From: an uncultured Spirochaetaceae bacterium
Lineage (GTDB): Bacteria > Spirochaetota > Spirochaetia > SZUA-6 > DRHE01
Assembly (NCBI GenBank): GCA_964588355.1
Contig: CAZPPB010000002.1
Location: forward strand, 16,218-80,217
Direction: 5' to 3'
DNA length: 64,000 nucleotides
Positions 2,281 to 22,193 of this stretch are shown piece by piece; positions within the stretch are counted from its first letter, which is position 1, and every line of letters begins with the position of its first letter. The notes beneath the pieces were generated by a model. The model worked only from the letters and a program-made list of their open reading frames with translations. It had not been told where the DNA came from and ran no database searches. The translations under genes and the position numbers were made by a program.

Positions 2281-2286
2281 AAGAGG

Positions 2287-3507: not shown

Positions 3508-3514
3508 CGGGTCT

Positions 3515-4120: not shown

Positions 4121-4233
4121 GACAACGTGAGTTTAGCCTCTCAGCCGGGTTTAGGTCAAATCGCTGTGGATAAAACGGCGGTTTTTCCGTACTGTCAATA
4201 CAGATCAACTGTCGGCACAGGGAGGGATCAGCA

Positions 4234-5247
4234 GTGGCGGAGGTACTGAAAGCGGCTTTCGTGGGTTTTCGGCATATGCATATGTTCGATATCCACGCTC
4301 ACCTGAACAAGAGCAAGGATGTGGAGATCGCGGCGGTCTGCGAGGAGGATGCCCAAACACGGAATGAGCTGGCTGCGGACGGCAGGATTGAGGTGAGCCA
4401 TACGGTTTTCGAGGATATGCTCGAGGCCGTGGACTTCGATCTTCTGGTGGTCGGGGAGGTTTTTTCGGGAAGGGGCAGGTTGATCCGTGCCGCCCTGGAA
4501 GCGGGGAAGCACGTTCTGAGTGACAAGCCGATCTGTACGGATCTGGAACAGTTGGGTGAGATCGCGGCTCTTTCTGTCCGGCAGCACCTGGTCGTCGGTG
4601 CTGCCTTGGACCTGAGGGATGCGGGAGCTTTCCGCCGCGCCCGGCAGCTGATCCGCTCCGGCACCATCGGTGCTCTGCGCGCCGTCACTTTCAGCGCACA
4701 GCATCCGCTTCTATTGGACACCCGGCCCGGTTGGTATTTCGAAAACGGAAATCACGGCGGAACGATCAACGATATCGCGATCCATGCGGTGGATCTGCTT
4801 CAATGGATCTCCGATCGGGGATTCAGCGAGATTTTGGCTGCCCGGAGTTGGAACGCGGGACTTTCCGCTGCTCCCGGATTCCGCAACGCCGCCCAGGTGA
4901 TCCTGGTCATGGACGGGGGTTGCGGGGTGATTGGAGATGTGTCCTACATCTCTCCCGACGGATTCCGCTATTCCCTGCCGCAGTACTGGCGCTTCAATTT
5001 CTGGGGTGATCGGGGAATGATCGAATCCGGATTGAATCTGCCGAAGCTGAGCCTGTATCGCTCGGATGCGGACACCGTCGAAGAAATGGATCTTCCTCCG
5101 GACCGTTCCGGGGGCTATTTGGAGGATCTGCTCCTGGCCATCAGGACAGGCCGCGGCTATCCCAACACCGCGTTATTCTCCGCCACCGAAGTATGTTTGA
5201 AGGCTCAGCAGGCCGCAGACCGGGGTGTGTTCGGAATTTCGTTGTAA
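4234..5247 (+). CDS. Gfo/Idh/MocA family oxidoreductase
   Basis: N-terminal Rossmann-like AAFVGFRHMHM..H, EAGKHVLSDKP (conserved EKP-like motif); GTG start with GGAGGGA 6 nt upstream. Confidence 0.75.
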   Translation: MAEVLKAAFVGFRHMHMFDIHAHLNKSKDVEIAAVCEEDAQTRNELAADGRIEVSHTVFEDMLEAVDFDLLVVGEVFSGRGRLIRAALEAGKHVLSDKPICTDLEQLGEIAALSVRQHLVVGAALDLRDAGAFRRARQLIRSGTIGALRAVTFSAQHPLLLDTRPGWYFENGNHGGTINDIAIHAVDLLQWISDRGFSEILAARSWNAGLSAAPGFRNAAQVILVMDGGCGVIGDVSYISPDGFRYSLPQYWRFNFWGDRGMIESGLNLPKLSLYRSDADTVEEMDLPPDRSGGYLEDLLLAIRTGRGYPNTALFSATEVCLKAQQAADRGVFGISL

Positions 5248-5303
5248 GACTGAATTTTTTCTTGCAATTTCTCGTCTGCTACACAAGAATAGGAACAACT
5301 CCG

Positions 5304-5507
5304 ATGAATACGGCCGGCCAACCAAAGAAGCGACTCGGTGAAGCCCTGGTGCAACGGGGAGCGATGACCGAAGAGCAGGTGAAACAGGTGCTTCTCAAAC
5401 AACGCGAGCAAAGCGGAATGGATAAACTGTTCGGTGAGATCGCCGTAGAGCTGAACTTCGTCGATTCCCAGATGATCGAGGATATCCTCAACCAGGGGAC
5501 GGACTGA
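5304..5507 (+). CDS. MshEN / T2SS-E N-terminal-domain-like mini-protein (67 aa)
   Basis: KKRLGEALVQRGAMTEEQVKQVLLKQREQSG..LFGEIAVELNFVDSQMIEDIL matches the repeated LGEiLv..g.iteeql..aL motif of the GspE/MshE N-domain; internal ATG at 5304; upstream part of track ORF 5193 looks non-coding. Confidence 0.5.
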   Translation: MNTAGQPKKRLGEALVQRGAMTEEQVKQVLLKQREQSGMDKLFGEIAVELNFVDSQMIEDILNQGTD

Positions 5508-5512
5508 CATTC

Positions 5513-6769
5513 TCAGCTGCGAACGCTTCGAAGCAGTACTCTCAGCACGGTATCGATTCGAGACAATTCCGAGGCCAGCTGTCCGGCAGCCGCGGGACTG
5601 AGCGGGAAGCAGTCGTTTTCCAGTTCGAGCAGCACCTTGTAGACCCCGTCCACAGCCCGGCCGGCGGACAGATCGTCGTTCATATGCTTTTCGAATTCCT
5701 CACGGATACTCTCGATTAATTCCCTGGCTCGCCGATCTGCGGGATTGGGCTCGGAGTCCCCGCGCGGTGTCTCTACCAGTTTTCGGATCAGGGAGCGGAT
5801 CGAGTCGATATATTCAACCGCCCGGGTGAAGCGCACACTGGTGAGGTTCAGCTTCCGCCGGTAGTGGGTGTAGATCAGAAAGAACCGCAGGTGATGGGGC
5901 TGAGTGTCCCATGTCAGCATATCCTCCGGATAGCGGATATTGCCCACGCTTTTGGACATCGTCTTGCCATCGATCACCAGGTGTTCCCCGTGGAGGTAGT
6001 AGTTCGCGTACTCCTTTCCCGACAGGGATTCGATAATCGCGATATTGTAGTCGTGGTGTCTGTAGATGTTGTCGATCCCCCCGCAGTTGATGTCGATTTG
6101 GTATCCCAGATTCTCCGTGACCATCGCCGGATCCTGGATGTTCCAGGAGGGTCTGCCCCTGCCGATCTCGGTATCCCAGGTGCTCAGGTCCCCATCCTCG
6201 TGCCCGTGCCATAGGACAAAATCCCCCAGGTTCCAGCGGCGGCCGTTGTAGGTGTCCTTTTTGAAACGGATTTTCTTTTTCGGCCATCTGCTCATGTCCA
6301 GCCGAAACAGCTTGCCGAAGCCTTCGAACTTCAGGGGATCGAAAAAAACCTTGTTCTCATGCCAGTAAGCCAGGCCCTTGTCGATCAATTTTTGGATCAG
6401 ATGAACCGCCTGGTCGATGCTCGTCGAAGCCCTGGGTATCCTGGGGGGAAGCTTGATATCCAGGATCTCGGTCTCTTTGTGGAAATGTTCAGCTACTTCC
6501 GCGGCGATCTGCTGGGGATTTTTCCCCACCGCTACCGCCTCTTCCAGCATTTTGTCTTCCACATCGGTGAAATTGATAACACGGTTGACCTTGTATCCGA
6601 GGTATTCCAAGTAGCGGACCAGGATATCCTCGTAGAGAAAGGTGCGGTAGTTGCCGATGTGGGGACGGCGGTACGTCGACGGTCCGCAGGTGAAGATTTT
6701 GACCTCTCCCTCCTTCAGTGGCTGAAAGGTCTCCTTGCTGCGGCTCATCGTGTTGTACAATCGAAGCAT
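5513..6769 (-). CDS. cysS: cysteine--tRNA ligase
   Basis: Class I aaRS: CGPSTYRRPHIGN (HIGH), KTMSKSVGN (KMSKS), zinc-ligand context NCGGIDNIYRHHDYN; start MLRLYNTMSR with GAGGGG RBS (the track start 6820 is an extension). Confidence 0.8.
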   Translation of the reverse strand: MLRLYNTMSRSKETFQPLKEGEVKIFTCGPSTYRRPHIGNYRTFLYEDILVRYLEYLGYKVNRVINFTDVEDKMLEEAVAVGKNPQQIAAEVAEHFHKETEILDIKLPPRIPRASTSIDQAVHLIQKLIDKGLAYWHENKVFFDPLKFEGFGKLFRLDMSRWPKKKIRFKKDTYNGRRWNLGDFVLWHGHEDGDLSTWDTEIGRGRPSWNIQDPAMVTENLGYQIDINCGGIDNIYRHHDYNIAIIESLSGKEYANYYLHGEHLVIDGKTMSKSVGNIRYPEDMLTWDTQPHHLRFFLIYTHYRRKLNLTSVRFTRAVEYIDSIRSLIRKLVETPRGDSEPNPADRRARELIESIREEFEKHMNDDLSAGRAVDGVYKVLLELENDCFPLSPAAAGQLASELSRIDTVLRVLLRSVRS

Positions 6770-6954
6770 TCTTCCCCTCTCTTTCTGGCCTAAAATACCC
6801 AGATACTCGCGTCGAGTCAAAGAGTCGCTGAAGAATTACCTTGCTCATTATCGCCATTTCGAATATCATGATGACGGCGGGGTTTCTCGCGCCGTCAGAT
6901 CGTATCGCAGGCGACTGCGGTCAAACGTACAATACGGAATCAGGAGCAAACGCG

Positions 6955-8289: not shown

Positions 8290-8476
8290 GTCGCCCCTCC
8301 TCGTACACCCACAAATATAGTGAAAGGGTGGGCGAAAAACAAGGTGGGAGGCCGCCCTGACCCGCTCCCCTTTTTCGATTGACAACCCAAACCGCCGATG
8401 TTACGCTTCTCTGTCGCCGAAAAGCTCTCGGGGCGATACCCGGGAGCTCGATTTTCGTTTCGAAGGGGGGAGTGGA

Positions 8477-10409
8477 TATGGGTGACACCATACCGAAACT
8501 GATGCTGGAGCACGTGCGCAGAGAACCGGAGATGACGATCCAGTGGTCAAAAGATGCAACCGGTACGTTCCAGCCGTTCGTCTGGAGACAGGTGCTCGAC
8601 GAGGTCGAGGCCTTTGCCGCGGGTTTGCTGGACCTCGGGATCAAGCGGGGGGATCACATCGGCATGATCTCCGAGAACATGAAAGAGTGGTTTTGGGCGG
8701 ATATGGCCATTCTGTCCATCGGTGCGGTGGACGTGCCCAGGGGATCCGATTCCACGGCCCCCGAGATCCGGTACATCCTGGAACACGCCGAATGCGCCCT
8801 GTGCATCGTGGAGAATCTGGCTCAGCTGGAAAAGGTGCTCTCGATCAAGAAGAGTCTGAAAAGGCTCAAGACCCTCATCGTGCTGGATCCGGATTTCAAG
8901 AAGGTCGACGAAATTGCCGTTGCCCAAATGGCCAAAAACGCCGGCGTCAAGGTGTTTAGTTTCAAAGAGGTGCAGGAGCGGGGCCGGGAATACGCCCGCA
9001 AACATCCGGGTTTTCTCGAGGAGGACATCGCCGAGGGTAAGCCCGAGGATCTGGCCACCCTGATCTACACCTCCGGAACCACCGGGGAACCCAAGGGGGT
9101 GATGCTGACCCACAGCAACTACATGCATCAGATACCAACGCCCCTCAAGCACCTCGATATACGGAAGGGTGATATTTTCCTTTCAGTACTTCCGGTCTGG
9201 CACTCCTACGAACGGGCCATCGGCTATGTAGCCACCTTCGCCGGCTGTTCCATTGCCTATTCCAAACTGGTTGCCCAGGTCATGTTGGAGGACATGGGCA
9301 AGATCAAGCCGCAGATCTTTCCCTCGGTTCCCCGCATCTGGGAGGCGGTGAAGCGGGGCATTATCCGCAACATCGAGTCCGGCAGCTCCGTGAAAAAAGC
9401 CCTGGCCTTCTTCTTCATCTCCGTGGGTGCAGCCTACTCCAAGCTCAAGACGAGGCTCAGGGGCCTGCGGCCCCGCTTCAAGAAGTCCAGCCGCCTCGCG
9501 GATGCCCTGCTCAGCATCCTGCCCTTTCTGCTGCTTGCCCCATTGAATGCCCTTGGACAGCTGTTGGTCTTCAAGAAGATCAAGCACAGGTTGGGGGGCA
9601 AGTTCAAATTCGGCGTGTCAGGAGCCGGAGCCCTGCCGCCCCACGTGGATGAGTTCTTTGCCGCTGCGGGGATCCTGCTGCTCGAAGGTTACGGCCTTAC
9701 CGAAACCTCCCCGATCGTGTCGGTGCGGCAGAGTTTTCACCCGGTTCCCGGAACGATCGGACCGCCTCTGGAACAGGTCGAGGTCAAGGTGCTTGCCGAA
9801 GACGGTAGCGAGCTGCCTCCTGGACACAAGGGCGTGCTCTACATCCGCGGTCCCAACGTGATGAAGGGCTACTACAAGAGGCCGGAGCTGACCGCGCAGA
9901 CCATTACCGCAGACGGTTGGCTGAATACCGGAGATCTGGCCATGCTGAGTTATGACGGGGAGATCAAGATCATGGGACGGGTCAAGGAAACCGTCGTTCT
10001 GCTGGGCGGGGAGAACGTAGAACCCAGCCCGATCGAAGATACCATCTGCGAATCCGACTATGTGGATCAAGTCATGGTCGTCGGCCAGGATCAAAAATAT
10101 TTGGCCGCCCTGGTAGTGCCCAATTTTGAAACCCTGAAAGATTTTGCCGAGGAGAACGGTATCCCCTTCGAAAAGCCCGAAGACCTGCTGAACAACAATG
10201 ACGTGTACAAACTGATCATGGACGAGATCGACTCCAAGATCGGTCCCAAACGGGGCTTCAAACTCTTCGAGCGCATCAACAAGATAAAAATTCTGGTAAA
10301 ACCCTTTGAGAAAGGCGTGGAGATGACCCATACCTTGAAACTCAAACGGGATGTGATCTACGATGAGTACGACAGAGAGATAAAAGAACTATTCAAGGAA
10401 CTTCGTTAG
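8477..10409 (+). CDS. long-chain-fatty-acid--CoA ligase (AMP-binding family)
   Basis: AMP-binding motif LIYTSGTTGEPKGVMLTHSNY, YGLTE, GWLNTGD; ATG 8477 preceded by G-rich RBS. Confidence 0.85.
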
Positions 10410-10799
10410 GTGAATATTCTCATTGTTGAAGACGAACTGACGAGCAGGGAACTCCTAAAGGTAATCCTCGAGCCCTATGGAACCGTACAGAGCGCAGCCG
10501 ACGGGATCGAGGCCATGAAAGCCTTTAATCTGGCACTGGCAAAACAGCCCTACGACCTCATCTGTCTGGATATCATGCTGCCCAAGATGGACGGGCAGCA
10601 GGTGCTGAAGGGCATCCGCAAGATAGAGCAGGACAAGGGGATAATCGGTCCCGATGCTGTGAAGATCATCATGATTTCGGCCCTGGGAGACTTCGAGACT
10701 GTCACCGAGGCCTTTTCCTCCCAATGTACCAGCTACATCGCCAAACCGATCGATGCCGATAATATCGTAGAGGAGTTGAGGAATCTCGAATTGATCTAG
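10410..10799 (+). CDS. single-domain response regulator (CheY-like receiver)
   Basis: ILIVEDE..DLICLDIMLPKMDG..IIMISA; GTG start immediately after the ligase stop. Confidence 0.8.
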   Translation: MNILIVEDELTSRELLKVILEPYGTVQSAADGIEAMKAFNLALAKQPYDLICLDIMLPKMDGQQVLKGIRKIEQDKGIIGPDAVKIIMISALGDFETVTEAFSSQCTSYIAKPIDADNIVEELRNLELI

Positions 10800-10987
10800 A
10801 GGGAGTATGGCCTGCTTCATCGCCCTCCCGCTGTTCACTCCGGCCTGCCCGTCGGGATCGCCCCCTCGGGGGGGGGCGGTCCTCTTCGTTTCCAGAGCTT
10901 CTTTCGTGACCCTGCTTCTGAACTGCCTCATAGAGGCGCCCCTGTTCGGGCGCAGCTGCGGGGCCGCAGAAATAGTGCGGATAGGAC

Positions 10988-11016
10988 TTGACAGAAAAAG
11001 AATTATATAGTAAATA
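10988..11016 (+). promoter_or_regulatory. candidate sigma-70 promoter for the selenoprotein gene (TTGACA-N17-TAAATA)
   Basis: TTGACA at 10988-10993, TAAATA at 11011-11016, in an AT-rich island ~30 nt upstream of the AAGGTGG RBS. Confidence 0.35.
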
Positions 11017-11045
11017 TTCTATATACAAAATAAGGTGGTGTACCT

Positions 11046-11330
11046 ATGCAGATAACCAGATCGGCTCTCTCAGAGCTGTTCGATGTGCTGAAAGAGAATC
11101 AGGGCAAGAGTCTACGCGTGGTGTTTAAAGGCTTTGGATGAGGCGGTCCCCGTTTGGGGTTGGCTCTGGATGAGCCTCAGGACGGTGACAAGACCTACAA
11201 AGTCGAGGGAATAGACATTCTGGTGGATAAACGGGCAATTCCCTATGCCAGCGAGAGCACCGTAGACTATATCGACAGTTTCTGGGGCAAAGGCTTCACG
11301 ATCCGCCCGGCCTACGGGGGAGCCTGCTAG
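11046..11330 (+). CDS. HesB/IscA-like (A-type Fe-S carrier fold) selenoprotein with in-frame UGA (Sec) at 11139-11141
   Basis: MQITRSALSELFDVLKENQGKSLRVVFKGFG-U-GGPRLGLALDEPQDGDKTYKVEGIDILVDKRAIPYASESTVDYIDSFWGKGFTIRPAYGGAC*; UGA replaces the conserved Cys of the G-G-G-C-x-G motif of IscA/HesB; strong AAGGTGG RBS 7 nt before ATG 11046; no alternative start downstream of the UGA. Confidence 0.7.
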
Positions 11331-12210
11331 GTTCCCTCCGTTCGCCTCTCCGGCGTGATCTAACCAATCCCCTCAGATACTCCAAAATAACAGTCGCTGG
11401 GCCCCAGTCTGCGCGCTCCTGTTGGCGCGCAAGCAGCCCCCGGTAGGATTCCAGTATCAACTCTCGGAACCGCACCACGGTAGCGGGGTCAGGGATCGGC
11501 GCTTCGGCGAACAGCTCCGAGACGAATCTTCTGACTTCCCGGTCATCGTACGCGGGAAACAGGCTAGACAGCAAAAACAGAGAGGGCCCGATGTCGAGCA
11601 GACTGTGCTGCTTCACCAGAAGTATCGCCTCGGTGATTCGCAGGGCCGCTCTATAGGTCTCAGCCAACAGCCGGCTCCCGGATGCATCCTCGGGGTCGAT
11701 TCTCGTCAAGATTTCGCGTGCCCGGAGGTAGTTGTAGCAGACCGTGAGCACGTGGAGGCTGGGAATGCAGTGCAGGTGAGGATCGAAGACGGCAATCAGG
11801 AGGAAGTAGGGATTTGCAGGCGCTGCGCGCCGGGTTGTGGTCGTGGACTGGCAGCGTCGGTACACACTTCCCGATGCACGATACAGCAGGACCAGATCCC
11901 GCATCATCCCTTCGATATCCTTCAGAACGGGTTTCCCGCAAATCCGGTACAGGCGACCCAGAGTCTTCAGCCACATTGTGAAGTAACTGAGGTACCTGCG
12001 AAACAGGTTTGGATCGAAGGGAAGGCGGTCATCCAGCGGATGGGTCACAACCGCCACAGGCCGCAACCCCGGGAGCAGCCGAGATTGGAATTGGGGGAGG
12101 AAAAACTCCCGCAGCGCCGCTTTGAAGATCAGGATGCCTCTGCGTCGAAGCCGGCCGTGTCGAAGGATCAGTCGTACACTTGATCCGAGACCGACCCTCT
12201 CGGTATCCAT
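11296..12210 (-). CDS. hypothetical protein (co-operonic with MinD/ParA-like ATPase)
   Basis: 304-aa ORF 19 nt downstream of the ATPase gene; Arg-rich C-terminus overlapping the selenoprotein gene may be a frame artefact. Confidence 0.45.
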   Translation of the reverse strand: MDTERVGLGSSVRLILRHGRLRRRGILIFKAALREFFLPQFQSRLLPGLRPVAVVTHPLDDRLPFDPNLFRRYLSYFTMWLKTLGRLYRICGKPVLKDIEGMMRDLVLLYRASGSVYRRCQSTTTTRRAAPANPYFLLIAVFDPHLHCIPSLHVLTVCYNYLRAREILTRIDPEDASGSRLLAETYRAALRITEAILLVKQHSLLDIGPSLFLLSSLFPAYDDREVRRFVSELFAEAPIPDPATVVRFRELILESYRGLLARQQERADWGPATVILEYLRGLVRSRRRGERREPSRLPRRPGGS

Positions 12211-12228
12211 ATCAGCCGCTGTCCTTGG

Positions 12229-13977
12229 CTATCCGGTCTGCTTGAGAGCCTGAAGGGTCCTCTCTGCGCCTTCCTGAAACGCGCCGGCTGCGCAGCGAAA
12301 GGGAAACCCGACTACGACGCTGAGCCCGCTGTACAGGGTATCGTGGATGAAATTCGTCAACAGTTTTACATAGGCGCTGCGGATGATGCTCCCATTTTGG
12401 TCACGAAAAAGCAGTGCGGAAAGCTCGAAGGTCTTCACGATATTGGCTATCTGTTTGCTCACGATCGGATGGAGGGTCTTCAGGAGTTTCAGATAGCGGC
12501 TCTTGTACTCGGGATCTCCCTCGACGAGATTACGGATCTGGCGGTGCCGGTCCCGTACAGGCGAACCTTTTGTGTTCGTCTTGGACGGCACGAGAGAGCT
12601 GATCAGCTCGGTCACCGTCTGGGATTGAAAAAGCTTGTAGAGGGAGAAGTAGAACAGGAGGAGGCCTCCCTGGTTGGCCATCCGCGGGTTCCGCCTGCTG
12701 ATCCGATTGACCGCTACCAGCAGGGCGGACAGTTCCCGGTCTACTGCCTTGTCGGGAACCACGGCGGTCCCGGCGGCGAAGGGATTCTTTCCCTCCTCCA
12801 GACGATGAAGTTTTTCCTCCAGCAGATCCATGGTTCGGATGATCCGCCGGCGCAGGGGGTCGGAGTTGAGTTTCTGCAGGAAAATACGGAAGCTCTTTTT
12901 CTCTGCGGGCGTGAAAACCTCCGCTGTACTGATTGCTGCTGCAGGACCCGAGGTTTCTTCCGGCCTGGCCTGAAGCTGAATTTCCAGCAGGATTCGGAGG
13001 TAGCGTCCGATCTCATCCAGGTACTCGTCGATATTCTCTACAGTTTTGTGATGGCTGAGGAACTGTTTGATCAACTCGAAGGAACGGTTCGAGATCGTGG
13101 AGGCAGCCAGGGTGGCGATCCGTTCTTCGTGGATAAACATGAGGGTATCGAGAAGAAAGCGGATAACATTCTCATCGGCTCCGGGACTGCCCCGCAGCAG
13201 ATTCAGGGCCGGGTCTTCCGGGATGCTTGCGAAATCCCGAAGCCGCGCTGAAACCCGTCTGTCGATCTGCAGCTCTTTGGGCACATTGCGGTTGTAGTTG
13301 CCCACGATGTCTTTGGGATTGAAGTGGCTGCGGGTGTTCGGGCTGAAGCGATTATGCCAGAGGTTGATCGTGAGATCGTGGTACACATCGAAGGCTCGCT
13401 TGATGTAGGCTCCCGCGGCGGCATGCGCGGTGGGTTCGGGGTTGGTCACCAGCAGGATCGAACCCATAAAGGGCAGGAAAACCAGGTTTTCTTCGAACTC
13501 GCTTCCGGCGGGCAGGTCGAATACGAGCAGCTGGTAGCGCTCATCCAAATCCCCGGGCAGTTCCCCGTAGATCTTTTCCAGCATTGCGTTCCGTTCCAGC
13601 TTCTTGAGCTTCGGGGAGGGGAAGATCAGATCGAGATGTTTGAACACCGGAATCGCCAAGCCCTGCAGTCCGGCATTCTGCATGTCGATCGTCTGTTCCT
13701 CCAAAGCCGCTTCGGACTCCACGATATCCAGAAGTGTGGCGATGTCGGAAAGCGGATCCAGATCGACCAAAGCGGTGCTAACCCCCCTGCGTGCGTAGTA
13801 GATGGAGAGGTTCACCGCGGTAATCGTTTTGCCCACGCCCCCCTTTCCGGAGGTTACGGCGATGGACTTGTTCCGCAGGGAGAACACATCCCGGTTGGCG
13901 CTTCTGGAAAGCAGGCGGTTTACCGTGCTCTTGAGCTCCCCCGGGATCTGAGCCCCCCGTTTGAAAATCTTGCTCAT
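12229..13977 (-). CDS. MinD/ParA-superfamily P-loop ATPase with ~300-aa uncharacterised C-terminal extension
   Basis: Deviant Walker A IAVTSGKGGVGKTITAVNL, followed by VDLDP; 582 aa total, C-terminal half has no recognisable motif. Confidence 0.75.
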   Translation of the reverse strand: MSKIFKRGAQIPGELKSTVNRLLSRSANRDVFSLRNKSIAVTSGKGGVGKTITAVNLSIYYARRGVSTALVDLDPLSDIATLLDIVESEAALEEQTIDMQNAGLQGLAIPVFKHLDLIFPSPKLKKLERNAMLEKIYGELPGDLDERYQLLVFDLPAGSEFEENLVFLPFMGSILLVTNPEPTAHAAAGAYIKRAFDVYHDLTINLWHNRFSPNTRSHFNPKDIVGNYNRNVPKELQIDRRVSARLRDFASIPEDPALNLLRGSPGADENVIRFLLDTLMFIHEERIATLAASTISNRSFELIKQFLSHHKTVENIDEYLDEIGRYLRILLEIQLQARPEETSGPAAAISTAEVFTPAEKKSFRIFLQKLNSDPLRRRIIRTMDLLEEKLHRLEEGKNPFAAGTAVVPDKAVDRELSALLVAVNRISRRNPRMANQGGLLLFYFSLYKLFQSQTVTELISSLVPSKTNTKGSPVRDRHRQIRNLVEGDPEYKSRYLKLLKTLHPIVSKQIANIVKTFELSALLFRDQNGSIIRSAYVKLLTNFIHDTLYSGLSVVVGFPFRCAAGAFQEGAERTLQALKQTG

Positions 13978-14085
13978 CCTGTTGCCGGCATTATCGTACG
14001 TATCGTTACTTTTCTCAAGTTGAAGTTCATTATCCAGCGGATCGATTCCGAAAAGTAAAAATAGTAGAGAAAGGGATGAAAATCA

Positions 14086-16038
14086 ATGCCCAACAGTTAT
14101 CGAATCTTGATCATCGATGATGAACCTCGGATGTGCGAAAGCCTGGAGCAACTGCTCGGCGGCCGAGGCTACCAGGTGGACAGCGCCAATACGGCTGAAG
14201 AGGGAATACAGCTGCTGGCCAAGACCGCCTACGATCTCCTGCTTCTCGACATCGTGCTCCCCGATATGAACGGCCTGGAAGTCCTGGAATATGTGCACGG
14301 CAGATACTCCGAACTGCTGGTGATCATGTTCTCCGGATTCGCCTCTATAGAGTCAGCGGTCAGTGCTCTCAAGAACGGCGCTTTCGACTATATACGCAAG
14401 CCTGTTGAGTACGAAGAGCTGATCAAACGGGTGGCCAATGCCCTGGAGCAGAAACGGCTGATACGGGAGAAGGAGGCCATCCACTGGGCGTTGGAGCAGT
14501 CCCAGAAGAGGTACAAATACCTGGTGGAAAGTTCGCCGGACATCATTTACACCCTCGACGAAAAGGGCCGTTTTTCCTTCGTCAACGATGCTTTCGAGCG
14601 TCTCCTGGGAGTGAAGCGGGAGCAGATCATCGGCAAGCATTACTCGCAGGTCATTTGCGACCGGGATCTCGAGAAATCCGAGCATGTATTCAATGAACGA
14701 CGGACCGGCAGCCGGGCGTCCTCCGGCGTAGAGATCCACCTCAGCAAACCCAGGAAGGGGGAGAAGGGCAACGGTTCGGGGACTAAACCCGAGGTTCCCG
14801 TGGAGGTCAAATCCCAGGGAATCTACGACCGGGAACCGGAGGAAAGGGAAAAGAATTTTCTCGGAACCTACGGTGTGGCTCGGGACATCCGGGATCGCAA
14901 ACTTTTAGAGGAGCATCTGCAGCAGGAGGAGAAGATGGAGGCGGTGGGGCGCCTGGCCGGTGGAATCGCCCATGACTTCAACAATTTTCTGGCCGCGGTG
15001 GTGGGCAATGTGGCCCTGGCCAAGATCCACACTCAGCCGGCTGACGAAATATATACGCGCCTCGAGGAGCTGGAGAGAGCCGCGCTGCGGGCCCGCGGGC
15101 TGACCCAGCAGTTGATCACCTTCGCCCAGGGTGGTGTGCCCGTCAAGCTTCCGGGGACCCTCCCCGATCTGATCAGGGATGCCTCCACCTTCGTGCTTCG
15201 CGGCTCCAACGTACGCTGTACGTATAAGCTACCCCCAGATCTCTGGTGGGCCGAGTTCGACCAGGGACAGATCATTCAGGTGATCCAGAATCTCCTCATC
15301 AATGCGGACCAGGCCATGCCCGACGGTGGCGTGGTCTCCGTGGAAGCGGAAAACGTCACGGTTACCTCCTCCTATCGGCTTCCTCTGAAGGCGGGTCGCT
15401 ATATACGGATCGTGGTAGAAGACAACGGATGTGGAATTCCGAAGGAGAACCTGAACAAGATCTTCGATCCCTTCTTCACGACCAAGAGCAACGGAACCGG
15501 TTTTGGGCTTGCTACGGCGTATTCGATCCTCAAGAATCACGACGGTTATCTGTATGCCGAATCGGAACTGGGCAGCGGCACCCGGTTTTTCCTGTTTCTG
15601 CCGGCCACGGACAAAAAAGGCGTCAAGACCGGGAATAACATGGGTGTCAAACTGTACAGCGGCAAGGGCAAGATCCTGGTGATGGATGACGATAACAGTC
15701 TGCGGGATGTCTATTCCCGTCTTCTCAAACATCTGGGATACGCGCCCACGGTGGTGGCCACCGGCGAGGAGGCGCTTTCCCGCTATTCACAGGCAAAGAA
15801 AACCGGAACGCCCTATTGCGCGGTGATCATGGATCTGACCGTGCCGGGTGCCATGGGGGGCAAGGAAGCGGTGCAGCGACTGCTGGAAATAGATCCCAAA
15901 GCGGTGGCTATCATCTCCAGTGGATATTCCAACGATCCGGTCATTGCGAATTTTCGGAAATACGGCTTCAAAGATGTGATCGGAAAACCCTTCACCGCCG
16001 AGAAGCTGAGCGAGGTGCTCTGGAAGCTTTTGAAGTAA
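14086..16038 (+). CDS. hybrid sensor histidine kinase/response regulator (REC-PAS-HisKA-HATPase-REC)
   Basis: N-terminal receiver ILIIDDE..LLLLDIVLPDMNG; H-box AHDFNNFLAAV; HATPase G-boxes DNGCGIP, GTGFGLA; C-terminal receiver ILVMDDD..VIMDLTVPG. Confidence 0.85.
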   Translation: MPNSYRILIIDDEPRMCESLEQLLGGRGYQVDSANTAEEGIQLLAKTAYDLLLLDIVLPDMNGLEVLEYVHGRYSELLVIMFSGFASIESAVSALKNGAFDYIRKPVEYEELIKRVANALEQKRLIREKEAIHWALEQSQKRYKYLVESSPDIIYTLDEKGRFSFVNDAFERLLGVKREQIIGKHYSQVICDRDLEKSEHVFNERRTGSRASSGVEIHLSKPRKGEKGNGSGTKPEVPVEVKSQGIYDREPEEREKNFLGTYGVARDIRDRKLLEEHLQQEEKMEAVGRLAGGIAHDFNNFLAAVVGNVALAKIHTQPADEIYTRLEELERAALRARGLTQQLITFAQGGVPVKLPGTLPDLIRDASTFVLRGSNVRCTYKLPPDLWWAEFDQGQIIQVIQNLLINADQAMPDGGVVSVEAENVTVTSSYRLPLKAGRYIRIVVEDNGCGIPKENLNKIFDPFFTTKSNGTGFGLATAYSILKNHDGYLYAESELGSGTRFFLFLPATDKKGVKTGNNMGVKLYSGKGKILVMDDDNSLRDVYSRLLKHLGYAPTVVATGEEALSRYSQAKKTGTPYCAVIMDLTVPGAMGGKEAVQRLLEIDPKAVAIISSGYSNDPVIANFRKYGFKDVIGKPFTAEKLSEVLWKLLK

Positions 16039-16072: not shown

Positions 16073-17827
16073 GTGAACGACGTGCGCAGGTTCACATTGA
16101 AACGACTTCGATTCAACAGTCTTCAAACCAAGATTCTCTTCTACGCGTTTCTTCCCTTTATCCTGGTAATCGTTTTCATCGTGATCGTGGGCTTCCAGGT
16201 TTTCGAACGGGTTCCTCAAGCTGTGGCGCAACAGCGGGAGGGCGAGCTGGCCCGAGTCGTGGCCGGACAGGTGGATCTCAGGTTGACGGAAGCCGGGTCG
16301 ACTCTGCTGCGGCTGGCAACCGAGCTGATGAACCGTCAAAGCGATGGAAATGGCGGCGATGTCGACCTTGATCCCTTCGACGGTGGCGTTGCCGTATTCA
16401 GTCCAGGGGGTGTTCTCCTGCAAGCCGACCCGCCTGGTGACGGTTGGGAAGACTTGATCTCCGGGCGGCTGGAGACGCTGATGAGGCAACGGAGACAAAC
16501 CTGTTCGGATATCCTTCGAGATCCCCGGAATGCGGAGCCCGTCATTGTATTTGTAGTGCCGATACTCGGCGAGCAGGGGGAGGTGCAGGCGGCCGCAGCC
16601 GGGGTGGCCACCCTGAGCGGCTCCCCGTTGATCGAGAGCTTCGAAGCGCTGATGGAGTCCACCAGAAACCGCAGCGGCTACACATATCTTGTCGACGGCA
16701 GGGGAAAGTTCCTCTACCATCGAAACCGCTCGCTGTTGGCAACCGCGCTGGCCGGCACTGTGCCGATGATGGGTGCCACCTACGGATTGAGCGGCGCTGT
16801 TCTCACCAGAGATGTCTCCGGGCAGCGGGTGATCGTTGGATACTCTCCGGTTGCCGGCACGGACTGGGCGCTGATTACCATGGAACGATGGCGGGTGATC
16901 GTCGGTCCGTTGCGCCTGTATAGTCTGGTGCTCCTGGCCGTTCTCATCAGCGGCGCTGCGGCCTCAGTCGTTCTCGTTCTTTTCGCTGTCGGACGAATCC
17001 TGAAGCCGATCCGGGATCTGACCCAAGGAGCCGAGAGGATCGCGGCTGGACAGTTCGATTACCGGATCGTAGCCGTTACCGGTGATGAAATCGAGGATCT
17101 TGCTATCCGCTTCAACTCCATGGCGGATTCCCTCAAGAGTCTGTACCGGGGACTGGAGCAGAAGGTCGCCTCTCGCACCGCAGAGGTACTGCAGCAGCAG
17201 CGCAGGCTTGCGGCGCTGGAGGAACGAAGCCGGGTTGCCCGGGACCTGCACGATTCGGTGAGTCAGTCTCTGTACAGCGTGACCCTTTTTTCCGAAGCGG
17301 CCCGCAGACATCTGGCGGCCAAGAACGCCGGAGCAGCCGAACAGTCCCTTGATCACCTGATTGGCGCTTCCCGGCAGGCGTTGAAAGAGATGCGGCTCAT
17401 GGTTTACGAGCTGCGCCCATCCGAACTGGAAAACAGAGGCCTGATTGGAGCGTTGAGACAACGGCTCAGCAGCGTGGAAAAGCGGTCGGGGATCGAGGCT
17501 TCGATCGACGCCCCGGCAGACCTCGTGTTGCCGGACATTCTGGAACAGGAGTTGTACAGCCTTGCCCAGGAGGCGCTGAACAACGCTCTACGGCACGGCA
17601 ACGCCCGTAAGGTGAAGCTGCGCCTCCAGCAGCGGGGTGAGGAGATCCAGCTGGACGTGCGGGATGACGGTGTGGGTTTCGATCCGGGTATGCTGCAGAG
17701 CACCGGCGGTATGGGCATCCGCGGGATGGAGGAGCGGGCGCACGCGCACGGGGGGCGGCTGCACGTCGATTCAGCGCCGGGACAGGGCACCCTGGTGCGC
17801 ATTGGGATACCGATTCCGAAGGGGTGA
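16073..17827 (+). CDS. sensor histidine kinase (HisKA_3/NarX-DegS type) with N-terminal TM and extracytoplasmic domain, HAMP
   Basis: TM helices at aa 21-41 and ~265-295, HAMP-like region, LHDSVSQSLYSV (HisKA_3 H-box), HATPase motifs RDDGVGF, GGMGIRGMEER. Confidence 0.75.
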   Translation: MNDVRRFTLKRLRFNSLQTKILFYAFLPFILVIVFIVIVGFQVFERVPQAVAQQREGELARVVAGQVDLRLTEAGSTLLRLATELMNRQSDGNGGDVDLDPFDGGVAVFSPGGVLLQADPPGDGWEDLISGRLETLMRQRRQTCSDILRDPRNAEPVIVFVVPILGEQGEVQAAAAGVATLSGSPLIESFEALMESTRNRSGYTYLVDGRGKFLYHRNRSLLATALAGTVPMMGATYGLSGAVLTRDVSGQRVIVGYSPVAGTDWALITMERWRVIVGPLRLYSLVLLAVLISGAAASVVLVLFAVGRILKPIRDLTQGAERIAAGQFDYRIVAVTGDEIEDLAIRFNSMADSLKSLYRGLEQKVASRTAEVLQQQRRLAALEERSRVARDLHDSVSQSLYSVTLFSEAARRHLAAKNAGAAEQSLDHLIGASRQALKEMRLMVYELRPSELENRGLIGALRQRLSSVEKRSGIEASIDAPADLVLPDILEQELYSLAQEALNNALRHGNARKVKLRLQQRGEEIQLDVRDDGVGFDPGMLQSTGGMGIRGMEERAHAHGGRLHVDSAPGQGTLVRIGIPIPKG

Positions 17828-17831
17828 GTTT

Positions 17832-18485
17832 ATGGAGGAAGAGACGATTCGGATTCTTATAGCCGATGACCATGCGGTCGTACGCAAAGGTCTGCTGGCG
17901 TTGATCCAAACGGAAGCGGGCATGGAGGCGGCCGGAGAGGCTGCTGACGGCGTCGAAGCTGTGAAGTTGGCCGCAGCACTGCGCCCCGATGTGATCCTGC
18001 TCGATCTGGTCATGCCCAGGATGGATGGGATCGAAGCGATCAGGGAGATTCGCCGCAACGATCCTGAGGCACGGATCCTGGTCCTGACGAGCTTCTCGGA
18101 GGACGAAAAGGTGCTGACCGCTATCGAAGTCGGCGCCATGGGCTGCCTGCTCAAGGACGCCACACCGGATGAGCTGCTTCGGGCTATAAGAGATGTACAT
18201 CAAGGACGATCAGCGCTCCATCCGGCGGTTGCCCAGAAATTGATCCGGAGGATGAGGAGAACAGAGACGCAAAAACCGATCGAAGAACTCACCGCCAGAG
18301 AGACCGAGGTACTGCGCTGTATCGCCCGCGGTTTGTCCAACAGGGAGATCGGGGATCAGCTGTTCATCAGCGAGCCCACCGTGCGTACCCACGTCAGCAA
18401 TATCCTGATGAAGCTCGAGCTGCCCAATCGAACCCAAGCGGCGTTGTACGCCGTTCGGGAGGGACTGGTCTCCCTGGAGGAATAG
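17832..18485 (+). CDS. NarL/LuxR-family response regulator
   Basis: ILIADDHAVVRKGL..LLDLVMPRMDG receiver plus C-terminal LuxR HTH LTARETEVLRCIARGLSNREIGDQLFISEPTVRTHVSNIL; ATG 1 nt after HK stop. Confidence 0.85.
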   Translation: MEEETIRILIADDHAVVRKGLLALIQTEAGMEAAGEAADGVEAVKLAAALRPDVILLDLVMPRMDGIEAIREIRRNDPEARILVLTSFSEDEKVLTAIEVGAMGCLLKDATPDELLRAIRDVHQGRSALHPAVAQKLIRRMRRTETQKPIEELTARETEVLRCIARGLSNREIGDQLFISEPTVRTHVSNILMKLELPNRTQAALYAVREGLVSLEE

Positions 18486-18636: not shown

Positions 18637-19422
18637 ATGAATATCAAATTTTTGACCGCGGGCACCGTGTTGCTGATCTCCGCGCTGTTGATGGGGTGCA
18701 TGGTCAGCGCCCAGAGCATGGGGCCGCGAGCTCCCCGTTTCTCATTGGACAAGCTGGCCGGCGGGGATGAGCGGGTAAACGGCTCGGGGCGGATCGTTAC
18801 CGAGGACTTTGATATCCGGGGTTTCAGCAGGGTGGATATCAGCCGCGCCTTCAACGTGGAGGTCATCCAAAGCAGTTCCTATAAGGTCGCAGTCCGGATA
18901 GACGAGAATCTGCAGCAGCATCTTCGCATCGAGAAGAGGGGAGATACCCTGGTGATCGGCCTGAAGCCCTACAGAAGCTACAATCTGCGCGGCGTCACAA
19001 TGGAGGCGCAGGTCCATATGCCGGATCTGCGGGGGATCGATGCCAGCGGTGCCAGCGACGTGCGTATAAGCGGATTCTCCTCTGCCAAGGATTTCGAAGT
19101 GGACCTGTCCGGCGCCAGCTATCTCGACGGCGAGATTATGGCCCGGGATATGCGCATCGAGGTCTGCGGAGCCAGCCGGGTTCGTCTGCAGGGCGCAGCG
19201 GTGGACCTATACCTAAACGCCTCAGGGGCCAGCAACCTGGATCTGGAGGATTTTCCGGTGCAGGACGCCGATATCGAACTGAGCGGAGCCAGCGAAGCCA
19301 AGGTAGTATTGAACGGGACTCTGGATATCGATGCCAGCGGAGCTTCCAGGCTGTACTTCGGCGGCAGCCCCACCATGGGGCGAGTCGACCTGTCTGGGGC
19401 ATCGTCTATCAAGCGCCGTTAA
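18637..19422 (+). CDS. DUF2807-like (head GIN domain) putative lipoprotein adhesin
   Basis: Signal peptide with lipobox LLMGC; repetitive SGAS..D/V beta-strand repeats typical of the DUF2807 beta-helix family. Confidence 0.55.
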   Translation: MNIKFLTAGTVLLISALLMGCMVSAQSMGPRAPRFSLDKLAGGDERVNGSGRIVTEDFDIRGFSRVDISRAFNVEVIQSSSYKVAVRIDENLQQHLRIEKRGDTLVIGLKPYRSYNLRGVTMEAQVHMPDLRGIDASGASDVRISGFSSAKDFEVDLSGASYLDGEIMARDMRIEVCGASRVRLQGAAVDLYLNASGASNLDLEDFPVQDADIELSGASEAKVVLNGTLDIDASGASRLYFGGSPTMGRVDLSGASSIKRR

Positions 19423-19556
19423 CCCGGCGGCGGTCGGCGATCTGGCGGTAGCGTAAACGGCGTTTTCCCCATCTTCCGACGCCGGATGACCGTACGCCGG
19501 ATGCAAAATGCTTGAATCAGTTGGAGGGAAACGCCTTTTTGCTTATAATTATTTCT

Positions 19557-20528
19557 ATGCCGACGAACGCAGGTCCGGAATACAAGAAGGCGGAAGAGGC
19601 GTTCCGCGCCGCCAAGACCGCCGATGAGAAGATCACCCGCCTGGAAGATATGATCGCCCTTCTGCCCAAACACAAGGGTACGGATCATCTGTACGCGGAT
19701 CTCAAGCGGAGGATGTCCAAGCTGCAGAAGCAGCAGGAAAGCTACGGGCGGAAGGGCGGCGCAGGCCCCGCCCTGGGATTCGAAAAGGAGGGGGCGGCTC
19801 AGGTGATTCTGGTCGGAGCAGCGAACAGCGGTAAATCCTCGATCCTCGGAGCCCTCACCAACGCCACTCCGGATATCGGGGAGTATCCCTTCAGCACCCA
19901 TGCGATGCATCCGGGGATGGTCCAGTTTGAGGATATTCAGATCCAACTGGTCGACACCCCTCCGGTAACCCCTGAGTTCATGCCCACCCACCTGCTCAGC
20001 GTGGTTCGCGGTACCGAGGCCGCGCTGCTGGTTGCGGATCTGTCGGTGGACTCCCTACTCGACGATCTGGAGGCCGTGTTCCAGGCCTTCGAGATGCGCC
20101 ACGTCACTTTCGTGGCAGAGCAAAACGAGGACAGGGATCAAATCCGCTGCCGGCTTATCGCCAACAAGCTCGATGCGCCGGGAGCGGACGCTCGGCTGGA
20201 CCTGCTGCGGGAGATGGTGGGCGGCCGCTTCCATATCCTGCCACTCTCTATCCGCGATCCGGAGGCGGTCGGCCGGCTGCCCCGGATGCTGTTCGAATGG
20301 CTCGGTGTCGTGCGGGTCTACACCAAGGCACCCGGAAAAAGGCCGGAACTGGCAAAACCGTACACGGTGTTTGCTGGCCAGAACGTGGGGGATATCTGCT
20401 CCCTGATTCACAAGGATTTCCTGCAAAATTTACGATTCGCCCGCATGTGGCGGGGTTCGGACAAGCCCATCACCGTGTCCAAGCACGAGATCGTACAGGA
20501 CAGAGATATCCTAGAGCTGCACCTATGA
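19557..20528 (+). CDS. DRG-like (Obg/HflX superfamily) GTP-binding protein with C-terminal TGS domain
   Basis: G1 GAANSGKSS, G4 NKLD, C-terminal RVYTKAPGKRPE..PYTVFAGQNVGDICSLIHKDF..ARMWG (TGS); G3 reads DTPP not DxxG. Confidence 0.65.
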   Translation: MPTNAGPEYKKAEEAFRAAKTADEKITRLEDMIALLPKHKGTDHLYADLKRRMSKLQKQQESYGRKGGAGPALGFEKEGAAQVILVGAANSGKSSILGALTNATPDIGEYPFSTHAMHPGMVQFEDIQIQLVDTPPVTPEFMPTHLLSVVRGTEAALLVADLSVDSLLDDLEAVFQAFEMRHVTFVAEQNEDRDQIRCRLIANKLDAPGADARLDLLREMVGGRFHILPLSIRDPEAVGRLPRMLFEWLGVVRVYTKAPGKRPELAKPYTVFAGQNVGDICSLIHKDFLQNLRFARMWRGSDKPITVSKHEIVQDRDILELHL

Positions 20529-21499
20529 GGCATCCGCTGAGAGTATTCACCTTCCTGATAATCGCCGCCGTAATCGCCCCTTCCTCCTTGTGCGCCGGGG
20601 GGGGGACGGCAGAACAGCGGGAAGTAGTCCGGGAGCTGCCCGGCAGGCCGAAACTGGTGATCGAGCTTACCAGCGCCGACTGCTTCATCGAGGCGGGCGG
20701 GGAAGACCGCATTCGACTGCGGGTCCTTCACAGCTATGGGGAGGATCGCTATAAGGTGGAAATCCAGGAACGTGGAGACCAGGTTCGACTGCGGGAACGC
20801 TTCCTCCGGCGATCGCCCCGGGGGTCCGCAACCTGGTTGCTCACGGTGCCCGCCGACACGGAGCTGTCCTTCTCCTCCGCTTCCGGAGTATTCGAATCAA
20901 GGGGGGATTACCGCGGGCTGGAAGCGAGCAGCGCCTCCGGGCGTATCTACATAGAGGATTTGGACGGGAGGATCGACATCAACACAGCCAGCGCAGCGGT
21001 GCGGCTGCAGGGCGTTGCCGGAGATCTGTCGGTAACCACGGCCAGCGGTGCTGTGGAGATTGCCGATTTCGGCGGCCGCCTCAGGCTGCGCAGCGCCGCG
21101 GGGGGAGTGAAACTGGACGGTCCTGCCGCCGAGATCGAGGCGACTACGGCAGCCGGAAGTATTGAGGTTTCCCAGCTGCGCCTGACCGGGGAGTGCAGCT
21201 TCCGCAGTGCCGCCGGGGATGTCGATGTGGAATTGGCAGCAGCTCCGACCTTCGATCTCTCCCTCGCCTCCTCATCCGGTACGGTAGAGCTCGACCTGAA
21301 CGGAAACGATATCGTGGGGACCTTCGTTTTCTCGGCCCTGCAGCAAACCGGCCGCATCGAATCTCCGCTCGACTTCGACGAGCAGGAGATCTTCGTTCAC
21401 GCCGGTCAGACCTACCTTCGCAAGTCCTTCAGCCGCGGCTCCTCCCTCCCCGGAATCAACCTGGCCACGGCCTCCGGTTCGGCCAGGTTGAAACGGTAA
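20525..21499 (+). CDS. DUF4097-like putative adhesin (secreted beta-helix repeat protein)
   Basis: Signal peptide MRHPLRVFTFLIIAAVIAPSSLCAGG; many ASG/SAAG..V..L repeat strands; ATG overlaps GTPase stop (ATGA). Confidence 0.55.
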   Translation: MRHPLRVFTFLIIAAVIAPSSLCAGGGTAEQREVVRELPGRPKLVIELTSADCFIEAGGEDRIRLRVLHSYGEDRYKVEIQERGDQVRLRERFLRRSPRGSATWLLTVPADTELSFSSASGVFESRGDYRGLEASSASGRIYIEDLDGRIDINTASAAVRLQGVAGDLSVTTASGAVEIADFGGRLRLRSAAGGVKLDGPAAEIEATTAAGSIEVSQLRLTGECSFRSAAGDVDVELAAAPTFDLSLASSSGTVELDLNGNDIVGTFVFSALQQTGRIESPLDFDEQEIFVHAGQTYLRKSFSRGSSLPGINLATASGSARLKR

Positions 21500-21534
21500 C
21501 AGAAAAAAATGCGCCAAATCGGTGACGGAGAAAC

Positions 21535-21563
21535 CTGAAAAAACTGTTCCATAGGTGTATACT
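21535..21563 (+). promoter_or_regulatory. candidate promoter for the OMP gene (CTGAAA-N17-TATACT)
   Basis: TATACT at 21558-21563 with a weak -35 at 17-nt spacing. Confidence 0.3.
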
Positions 21564-21616
21564 AAACCTACGACAAATATAGACGGGAGTAGCGTTCCCG
21601 TCAGAGGGAGGACTAG

Positions 21617-22129
21617 ATGAAAAAGACGCTTATTCTGGTATTGGTGCTGGCCTTCATCCCGCTGCTCTCTTTTGCAGATCTGGGATTGGGCGCCTCGGCT
21701 TTCCTGAACAACCCGGTGCTTATCGGTCAGGAAGCGGATGCATCGGAGCTTCGTGCGGGCGGTTTCACCTTCGGAGCGGACCTCCGCTTCAAGCTGAGCA
21801 TCCTGCAGCTGGAAGCCCTCGGCCTGTTGAGTTTGGGTGATGATGTCACCTCGATCGACCTGTACGCGGACGCCGGCCTGGCCCTGGATCTGGCGTTTCT
21901 GCGCCTGTCCCTGGGAGCCGGCCCCACGCTGTTATTCTTGCTGAATGACTCCACCGGTGACGATATCCTGGCCGGTTACAACGTCAAGGCCAACGCGGAC
22001 ATCAAGCTGGGACGGATTTCCTTCGGCTTGAGCTACATCATGGGCCTGATCGTCGAGGATGGATTGTTCGACGTCGCGTTGAACAAGAGCACCGGCATGC
22101 TGGGGGCCAACGTTCTGTTCTGGTTCTAG
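21617..22129 (+). CDS. small outer-membrane beta-barrel protein
   Basis: Signal peptide MKKTLILVLVLAFIPLLSFA, alternating hydrophobic strands, C-terminal Phe (..VLFWF). Confidence 0.55.
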   Translation: MKKTLILVLVLAFIPLLSFADLGLGASAFLNNPVLIGQEADASELRAGGFTFGADLRFKLSILQLEALGLLSLGDDVTSIDLYADAGLALDLAFLRLSLGAGPTLLFLLNDSTGDDILAGYNVKANADIKLGRISFGLSYIMGLIVEDGLFDVALNKSTGMLGANVLFWF

Positions 22130-22154: not shown

Positions 22155-22193
22155 AGGGGCTTTCCGTCGCTCAAGGCGGGAGCCCCTTTTTTT
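22155..22193 (+). terminator. rho-independent terminator downstream of the OMP gene
   Basis: GGGGCTTTCCGTCGCTCAAGGCGGGAGCCCC stem-loop followed by TTTTTTT. Confidence 0.7.

Follow-up and report, generated by a model that had tools for sequence, protein, structure and literature searches.

A DRG-like GTPase among envelope-protein genes of an uncultured spirochaete

The Locus

The stretch of 64,000 nucleotides (nt) analysed here as a whole, hereafter the window, covers positions 16,218 to 80,217 of contig CAZPPB010000002.1 (assembly GCA_964588355.1, an uncultured Spirochaetaceae bacterium), and carries four consecutive genes on one strand, the second of which encodes a GTPase of the DRG type, flanked by genes for exported envelope proteins. 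A first-pass annotation, made from the letters alone, had interpreted these genes as a surface-protein cluster built around a GTPase with a degenerate G3 motif. The comparison with related loci leads to another view: the arrangement is probably a lineage-specific juxtaposition and no system, with a resident, housekeeping-type DRG-like GTPase lying amid fast-evolving envelope genes. The remaining point of note is the GTPase itself, as a member of a broad, uncharacterised bacterial DRG-like clade that has a fixed non-glycine residue at G3 and lacks the S5D2L domain. The four genes and the terminator behind them are the following:

18637–19422, + strand: DUF2807 (Toastrack) beta-helix protein, probable lipoprotein, 261 amino acids (aa); Pfam PF10988, E 2.9e-35
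19557–20528, + strand: DRG-like GTPase, 323 aa; N-terminal extension, helix-turn-helix (HTH), G domain and TGS domain, no S5D2L insert
20525–21499, + strand: DUF4097 (Toastrack) secreted protein or lipoprotein, 324 aa; Pfam PF13349, E 1.4e-15
21617–22129, + strand: small 8-stranded outer-membrane beta-barrel, 170 aa; AlphaFold2 (AF2) model and Foldseek
22156–22193, + strand: intrinsic terminator, stem GGGGCT...AGCCCC followed by T7

The common strand was correctly read in the first pass, and the junctions, described there as tight or overlapping, include a single tight one: the TGA of the GTPase gene overlaps the ATG of the DUF4097 gene by 4 nt (ATGA), while 134 nt, containing a conserved promoter-like element, separate the DUF2807 gene from the GTPase gene, and 117 nt separate the DUF4097 gene from the barrel gene. 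The starts given in the list of open reading frames (ORFs) for the second gene (TTG 19512) and the third (ATG 20297) both lie too far upstream. Since an MP[TA]N N-terminus is kept throughout the GTPase family, the GTPase start is placed at ATG 19557 and not at the upstream TTG.

A Short DRG-Like Protein in Bacteria

The GTPase matches MMR_HSR1 in Pfam (7e-13), and its best relatives among proteins of solved structure are the yeast DRG proteins, Rbg2 (phmmer against PDB sequences, 6.7e-26) and then Rbg1. A profile of the family likewise places DRG ahead of Obg, YchF, HflX and Nog1, with Rbg2 at 3.4e-40 and Rbg1 at 1.6e-34, followed by an MTG2/Obg-type chain at 2.3e-16 and YchF at about 1e-6, and the AF2 model (mean predicted local distance difference test, pLDDT, 82.8) finds Rbg1 as its top Foldseek match (E 2.5e-17). 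Membership of the Obg, YchF, HflX, Era or Der families was rejected, all NCBIfam equivalog scores being far under their cut-offs (for example, ObgE 41.7 bits against 406, Obg_CgtA 40 against 280, YchF 20 against 279). The protein shares its superfamily G domain with Obg/CgtA and YchF/OLA1, and a C-terminal TGS domain with YchF as well, but matches Obg-type chains at just 1e-10 to 1e-16 and YchF at 1e-6, and has neither the Obg fold domain nor the YchF coiled-coil insert. The first-pass assignment to a DRG-like protein with a C-terminal TGS domain is thus borne out, and a better alignment to a common bacterial family, which had been named as the outcome that would undo it, was not seen. The motifs GAANSGKS, DTPP and NKLD had also been quoted exactly. 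The landmarks of the protein lie as follows:

19662–19685, + strand: HTH apex motif LPKHKGTD
19815–19838, + strand: G1/P-loop GAANSGKS
19953–19964, + strand: G3 DTPP
20163–20174, + strand: G4 NKLD
20310–20519, + strand: TGS domain (Pfam, profile match, AF2 model)

The TGS domain is weak in Pfam for this member (20.5 bits, just below the 22.2 cut-off, which most relatives pass), but the family profile finds the TGS domains of human DRG1 (2eki, 2.5e-12) and of Rbg2 (1.3e-14), and the region is modelled at pLDDT 80–93. At the other end, residues 24–60 align to the HTH of Rbg2 (residues 4–40), PKHKGTDH being paired with QKNKATEH, and the corresponding helices 22–35 and 43–63 are present in the AF2 model. 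All of the 86 loci carry the apex motif PKHKGT[DE]H unchanged, and its lysine is the residue that is hydroxylated in eukaryotic DRGs (PMC8629797).

Compared to DRG, Rbg1 and Rbg2, which belong to the Obg family of the TRAFAC class, the protein has its best match in sequence, profile and fold, the same domain order, the HTH with its apex lysine, a G domain of the Obg type in which a hydrophobic residue follows G3, and the terminal TGS domain. It differs from them in its bacterial host, in an identity of only about 20–30%, in an extra conserved N-terminal helix segment (MP[TA]N..PEY..AE..FR in the family), in DxP[P/A] instead of DLPG at G3, and in the absence of S5D2L. Concerning this last domain, which in DRGs is inserted between G3 and G4, the profile alignment gives no counterpart in the GTPase to Rbg2 residues ~152–229, the distance from G3 to G4 is about 70 aa against about 130 aa in Rbg2, and the AF2 model shows canonical G-domain elements only in this stretch. 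Pfam finds no PF16897 in the GTPase, and in short bacterial forms only the C-terminal half of PF16897 matches.

Four family members (P0246, P0265, P0038 and P0055) carry Ala/Pro/Glu-rich low-complexity insertions of 30–60 aa between G3 and G4 or after G4, at the place where DRGs hold S5D2L, which resembles an insertion hot spot of the G domain. As for the DFRP partner (Tma46/Gir2 type) that is obligate for DRGs, the clustered flanking ORFs gave no conserved candidate neighbour, no search having been aimed at a DFRP domain.

How widespread is this form? A homologue search with the GTPase gave 4314 matches, and an exhaustive search of representatives gave 412 clusters at E <= 1e-30, the clustering being at 50% identity. 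In a pattern scan in which each GTDB species was represented by a single genome, at least 577 loci were confirmed, spread over about a dozen phyla. Carriers include Spirochaetota, Planctomycetota, Armatimonadota, Methylomirabilota, Desulfobacterota, Bacillota, Thermotogae, Bipolaricaulota, Chloroflexota (Dehalococcoidia, Anaerolineae), Gammaproteobacteria (Woeseiaceae, Arenicellales) and others. DRG-type GTPases had been called uncommon in bacteria in the first pass, which holds as a proportion but misses the breadth of the family. Automatic annotation names its members "ribosome-interacting GTPase 1" (JGI) or simply "GTPase" (NCBI), while DRGs are described as archaeal and eukaryotic proteins, found "not in bacteria" (PMC8629797) or "not in eubacteria" (PMC4263083), and literature searches on bacterial DRGs (COG1163, DRG-like, DRG with TGS) returned no description of the clade.

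The nearest longer relatives are archaeal, namely a Thermococcus "GTP-binding protein 2" (388 aa) and Bathyarchaeia proteins, together with P0368, whose context looks archaeal. These long forms (39–44% identity, E 1e-49 to 1e-61) have the same N-terminal extension with an MPxN start, the PKHKGTE motif, a TGS domain and a non-canonical G3, and unlike the bacterial form they retain the S5D2L region, with PF16897 matched over its full length, and run 60–70 aa longer. Their G3 reads EVPG, EVPA, EMPA, EAPA or DTPP, several having Glu for Asp (P0301 of Thermococcus, P0355, P0367 and P0377 of Bathyarchaeia, and P0368, at L093 5001–6179). The alignments suggest that the bacterial short form arose by loss of S5D2L from an "MPxN" subfamily of DRGs common to bacteria and some archaea.

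This archaeal affinity, with the same start and motif, and the published restriction of DRGs to archaea and eukaryotes (PMC8629797, PMC4263083) could also suggest that the spirochaete gained an archaeal DRG recently by horizontal transfer, which would explain the odd position of the gene. Such a gain is barely conceivable: the short DxPP form occurs in the at least 577 bacterial species of many phyla mentioned above, the gene keeps a stable position behind a ParA-like gene and a hybrid histidine kinase gene throughout the spirochaete lineage, and the GC content near it is unremarkable. Given this breadth, the stable backbone and the ordinary GC content, any transfer between domains of life would be ancient.

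An Altered Switch-II Motif in a Conserved Nucleotide Site

In the best 120 homologues, G3 reads DTPP, DSPP, DSPA, DAPP or DCPP, bar a few misfires of the regular expression. The 86 locus sequences, from about a dozen phyla, have D-x-P-[P/A] at this place, with Pro (77) or Ala (9) and never Gly (0 of 86) at the fourth position, and Pro in 85 of 86 at the third. None of the 150 best cluster representatives (clustering at 50% identity, list reaching down to E 2e-47) has a canonical DxxG. The substitution is thus a conserved feature of the family, and the rest of the nucleotide site is kept with it: G1 (G....GKS) is invariant in the 86 sequences, the P-loop Asn is present in 85, the G2 Thr in 85, the G3 Asp in 86, K and D of the G4 NKxD in 85–86, and the G5 Ser in 79. 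Retention of the P-loop Asn, G2 Thr, G3 Asp, G4 and G5 indicates a functional nucleotide site that is under purifying selection and is combined with a different switch II. The first-pass description of G3 as degenerate is not supported by a motif found in 86 of 86 loci next to intact G motifs, and a decayed pseudo-GTPase is unlikely from these alignments.

The backbone NH at the position of the G3 glycine normally contacts the gamma-phosphate, and proline has none. In Ras, Gs-alpha and EF-Tu, exchange of this Gly for Ala leaves GTP binding intact but prevents the change of conformation that GTP normally drives. Together with the finding that all members looked at have Pro, Ala or Ser instead of the glycine, this would speak for a family of true pseudo-GTPases, which would bind nucleotide constitutively, or be dead for hydrolysis, and act as static ribosome- or RNA-binding factors. 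Such a constitutively stiff protein is a serious alternative, which we regard as unlikely overall, because the strictly kept P-loop Asn, G2 Thr and G3 Asp are needed only for catalysis or for the handling of Mg2+ and cations, and because some eukaryotic GTPases with a non-canonical G3 (the RGK family) do bind and hydrolyse GTP.

Gene Order around the GTPase

Is the GTPase part of a surface-protein module? All window neighbours were used as phmmer queries against the ORFs of 85 loci. The order DUF2807–GTPase–DUF4097 was found only in L001–L005 among these loci, and the 80 loci of other species carried none of the neighbours. In the closest relatives (L001, L004/L005 and L089, GTPase identity 77–88%), the full order of two-component system, DUF2807, GTPase, DUF4097 and barrel is kept, although in L001 and L004 the GTPase and DUF4097 genes do not overlap but stand about 16 nt apart. 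In L002/L003 (87%), the two-component system is absent, and the DUF4097 gene has shrunk to a remnant of 30 C-terminal aa behind an intact GTPase gene (L002 9008–9097, L003 2448–2537; 67% identical to residues 294–323 of the window protein), which is direct evidence of a DUF4097 deletion in that lineage. Slightly further away, the order is hybrid histidine kinase–GTPase–barrel in L094 (70%) and hybrid histidine kinase–GTPase–LacI-type regulator in L006 (73%), both Toastrack genes being absent from each. The kinase with a dCache sensor accompanies the cluster in L001, L004, L005 and L089, and is absent in L002, L006 and L094. The envelope genes around the GTPase are therefore dispensable, and have been gained and lost within one spirochaete lineage.

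The GTPase is also the slowest-evolving member of the cluster, with 77–88% identity among close relatives against 62–75% for the DUF2807 protein and 50–68% for the DUF4097 protein. What stays constant in the lineage is the order ParA-like–hybrid PAS kinase–GTPase, which is also that of the window. The backbone ending at the GTPase (window 8379–16038, also L002, L006 and L094) consists of an AMP-binding enzyme, a single REC protein, PlsY (named from the three related loci, and putative in the window), a 304-aa protein, the ParA-like ATPase (~582 aa) and the REC-PAS-histidine kinase-REC hybrid.

According to the module idea, the four genes would form a unit in which a DRG-like regulatory pseudo-GTPase governs how the two beta-helix proteins and the barrel are produced or exported. 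The four same-strand genes with their ATGA overlap between GTPase and DUF4097, the single strong terminator after the fourth gene, and the recurrence of the arrangement in L001, L004, L005 and L089 are consistent with it. This recurrence is limited to relatives whose GTPases are at least 77% identical, however, so that shared ancestry suffices to explain it, and the losses described above left the GTPase intact. The overlap is not kept even in L001 and L004, homologues of the neighbours exist without the GTPase, and the GTPase gene has a conserved promoter-like element of its own (see below). Altogether, such a module is highly improbable. A direct contact of the GTPase with the Toastrack proteins is topologically unlikely too, the former being cytoplasmic and the latter exported. 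The first-pass annotation, which had suggested a comparison of synteny, regarded a lack of conservation elsewhere as speaking against its cluster, and such a lack is essentially what was observed: only close relatives show the order, L002/L003 have lost part of it, and L006, L094 and the 80 loci of other species lack it.

Three further kinds of neighbour were considered and discarded. An all-against-all clustering of flanking ORFs, in search of a universal neighbour of the GTPase, yielded only UvrC, in 17 of 85 loci, nearly all from Dehalococcoidia. The barrel gene does not travel with the GTPase at a distance, its homologues in L086–L088 (52–60%) sitting in unrelated contexts, and the only distant homologue that adjoins a GTPase gene is that of L094. 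Nor does the DUF4097 gene, whose distant homologues (33–36%) lie beside Reg_prop/AraC sensors with no GTPase.

In the 17 loci with uvrC (L022, L023, L029, L030, L036, L045, L050–L053, L058, L069, L074, L075 and L080–L082), this gene lies immediately 5' of the GTPase gene and shares its strand, the two overlapping with a median spacing of -4 nt; besides Dehalococcoidia, they include two "deltaproteobacterial" metagenome-assembled genomes.

Transcription Signals

Two elements in the intergenic regions bear on how the four genes are transcribed:

19521–19549, + strand: sigma-70-like promoter element TTGGAG-17 nt-TATAAT, from cross-locus alignment
21582–21602, strand not assigned: 7-bp hairpin 5' of the Shine-Dalgarno sequence of the barrel gene

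The first, TTGGAG-17 nt-TATA(A/C)T, ends 7 nt 5' of the GTPase ATG, is kept in 6 of 6 aligned loci, and persists in L006, which has no DUF2807 gene upstream. It was recognised only through this alignment, since in a promoter scan it falls below the threshold of the tool, its -35 box fitting at 3 of 6 positions only. No Shine-Dalgarno sequence precedes the GTPase ATG. These features suggest that the gene has an independent, conserved promoter and that its mRNA is probably leaderless or nearly so.

Two features mark the intergenic block 5' of the barrel gene, a promoter-like TGAAAA-17-TATACT and the hairpin, which abuts the Shine-Dalgarno sequence; the block is kept among close relatives, including L002 where the DUF4097 gene is deleted. 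The hairpin (GACGGGA...TCCCGTC, 7 bp, GC-rich) is shared by the window with L001, L002 and L004, and has an imperfect counterpart in L089; it may serve to control translation or transcription. With promoter-like blocks 5' of both the GTPase gene and the barrel gene, the four genes probably form separate transcription units, namely DUF2807 alone, the GTPase (with DUF4097), and the barrel gene.

The Neighbouring Envelope Proteins and the Two-Component System

Upstream of the four genes lies a two-component system:

16073–17827, + strand: sensor histidine kinase, dCache_1-HAMP-HisKA_3-HATPase_c (Pfam)
17832–18485, + strand: response regulator REC-GerE/LuxR, partner of the dCache kinase (Pfam)

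The DUF2807 protein had been correctly recognised as such and as a lipoprotein (122.1 bits against a Pfam gathering score of 24.2; signal peptide and LLMGC lipobox). For the DUF4097 protein (57.7 bits against 22.9), the family and the gene overlap stood, but the term "putative adhesin" attached to both families is no more than a label taken from databases. Both families are Toastrack domains, unified with LiaF/LiaG and tied to Psp/Lia envelope-stress signalling through LiaRS (PMC11237479). A LiaG equivalog (NF049997) was considered for the DUF4097 protein and set aside (50.9 bits, the cut-off being 285).

Both proteins resemble the LiaG/LiaF/YvlB-type Toastrack proteins (DUF4097, DUF2154, DUF2807) in that they pass the Pfam thresholds, and the locus resembles the lia locus (PMC11237479) in that Toastrack genes adjoin a HisKA_3/LuxR two-component system. 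It differs in lacking any PspC or LiaI-LiaF-TM domain in the cluster, in the extracytoplasmic dCache sensor of the kinase, which distinguishes it from LiaS, and in that both Toastracks are exported proteins or lipoproteins of a diderm spirochaete. The flanking envelope genes, including that of the barrel, may more plausibly belong with the neighbouring dCache-HisKA_3/LuxR system than with the GTPase.

In three other loci (L090, L091 and L092, at ~2000–6900), DUF4097 homologues lie directly 3' of a sensor-regulator of about 910 aa with Reg_prop/Y_Y_Y and HTH_AraC domains (3 of 3), with a second tandem DUF4097 gene in two of them; this combination of a Reg_prop/AraC sensor with a Toastrack may be a conserved module.

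The fourth protein was rightly described as a small 8-stranded outer-membrane protein followed by a terminator. Its AF2 model (pLDDT 85.4) has a signal helix (residues 2–19) followed by 8 strands, and the C-terminus ends in ...LFWF; the top 11 Foldseek matches are all small outer-membrane barrels, the best being OmpA-TM, OprF-N, NspA, OmpX and OmpW. It shares with these the signal peptide, the 8 antiparallel strands and the aromatic residue at the C-terminus, but it has no match to a sequence family in Pfam or NCBIfam, and the TM-scores are 0.5–0.6 only. Its 130 homologues are lineage-restricted.

A Possible Role of the GTPase

Once the envelope genes are set apart, what would such a protein do? 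We tentatively propose, at slightly less than even odds, that it belongs to a widespread and ancient bacterial clade of DRG-type translation GTPases, an "MPxN" subfamily common with some archaea in which the tRNA-contacting S5D2L was lost and the switch-II glycine was replaced by a fixed proline. The protein would bind guanine nucleotide and, by analogy with Rbg1, whose domain roles are taken from PMC8629797, would dock at the GTPase-associated centre of the ribosome through its HTH, G and TGS domains, and assist translation. Because proline lacks the backbone NH and has little flexibility, the gamma-phosphate would be sensed through switch I alone, switch II being rigid.

Several points weigh against parts of this overall picture. 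The genomic neighbours of the GTPase include no translation genes, and the G3 proline may abolish hydrolysis or switching, in which case the label "GTPase" would be wrong. What connects the Toastrack genes with the two-component system is their adjacency, a single co-loss (L002, where the two-component system and DUF4097 are both lost) and analogy with the literature, and the DUF2807 gene remains in L002 without the two-component system. Finally, the ATGA overlap would allow translational coupling of GTPase and DUF4097 in the window genome, and the GTPase, DUF4097 and barrel genes may share one transcript.

Implications

A link between a GTPase and surface proteins would have been the more surprising outcome, and the evidence does not favour it. 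What the locus leads to is a conserved DRG-like clade present in hundreds of bacterial species, which revises the view of DRGs as proteins of archaea and eukaryotes only (PMC8629797, PMC4263083). The bacterial form is a minimal DRG, made of HTH, G and TGS domains only, and its carriers would offer a simpler background for the study of the role of DRGs at the ribosome. The universal replacement of the G3 glycine by Pro or Ala, with the other G motifs intact, represents a natural test of the need for switch II. If the proposal of a widespread translation-associated clade is true, its members would be mechanistically distinct ribosome-associated NTPases, in which the gamma-phosphate is sensed without a canonical switch II.

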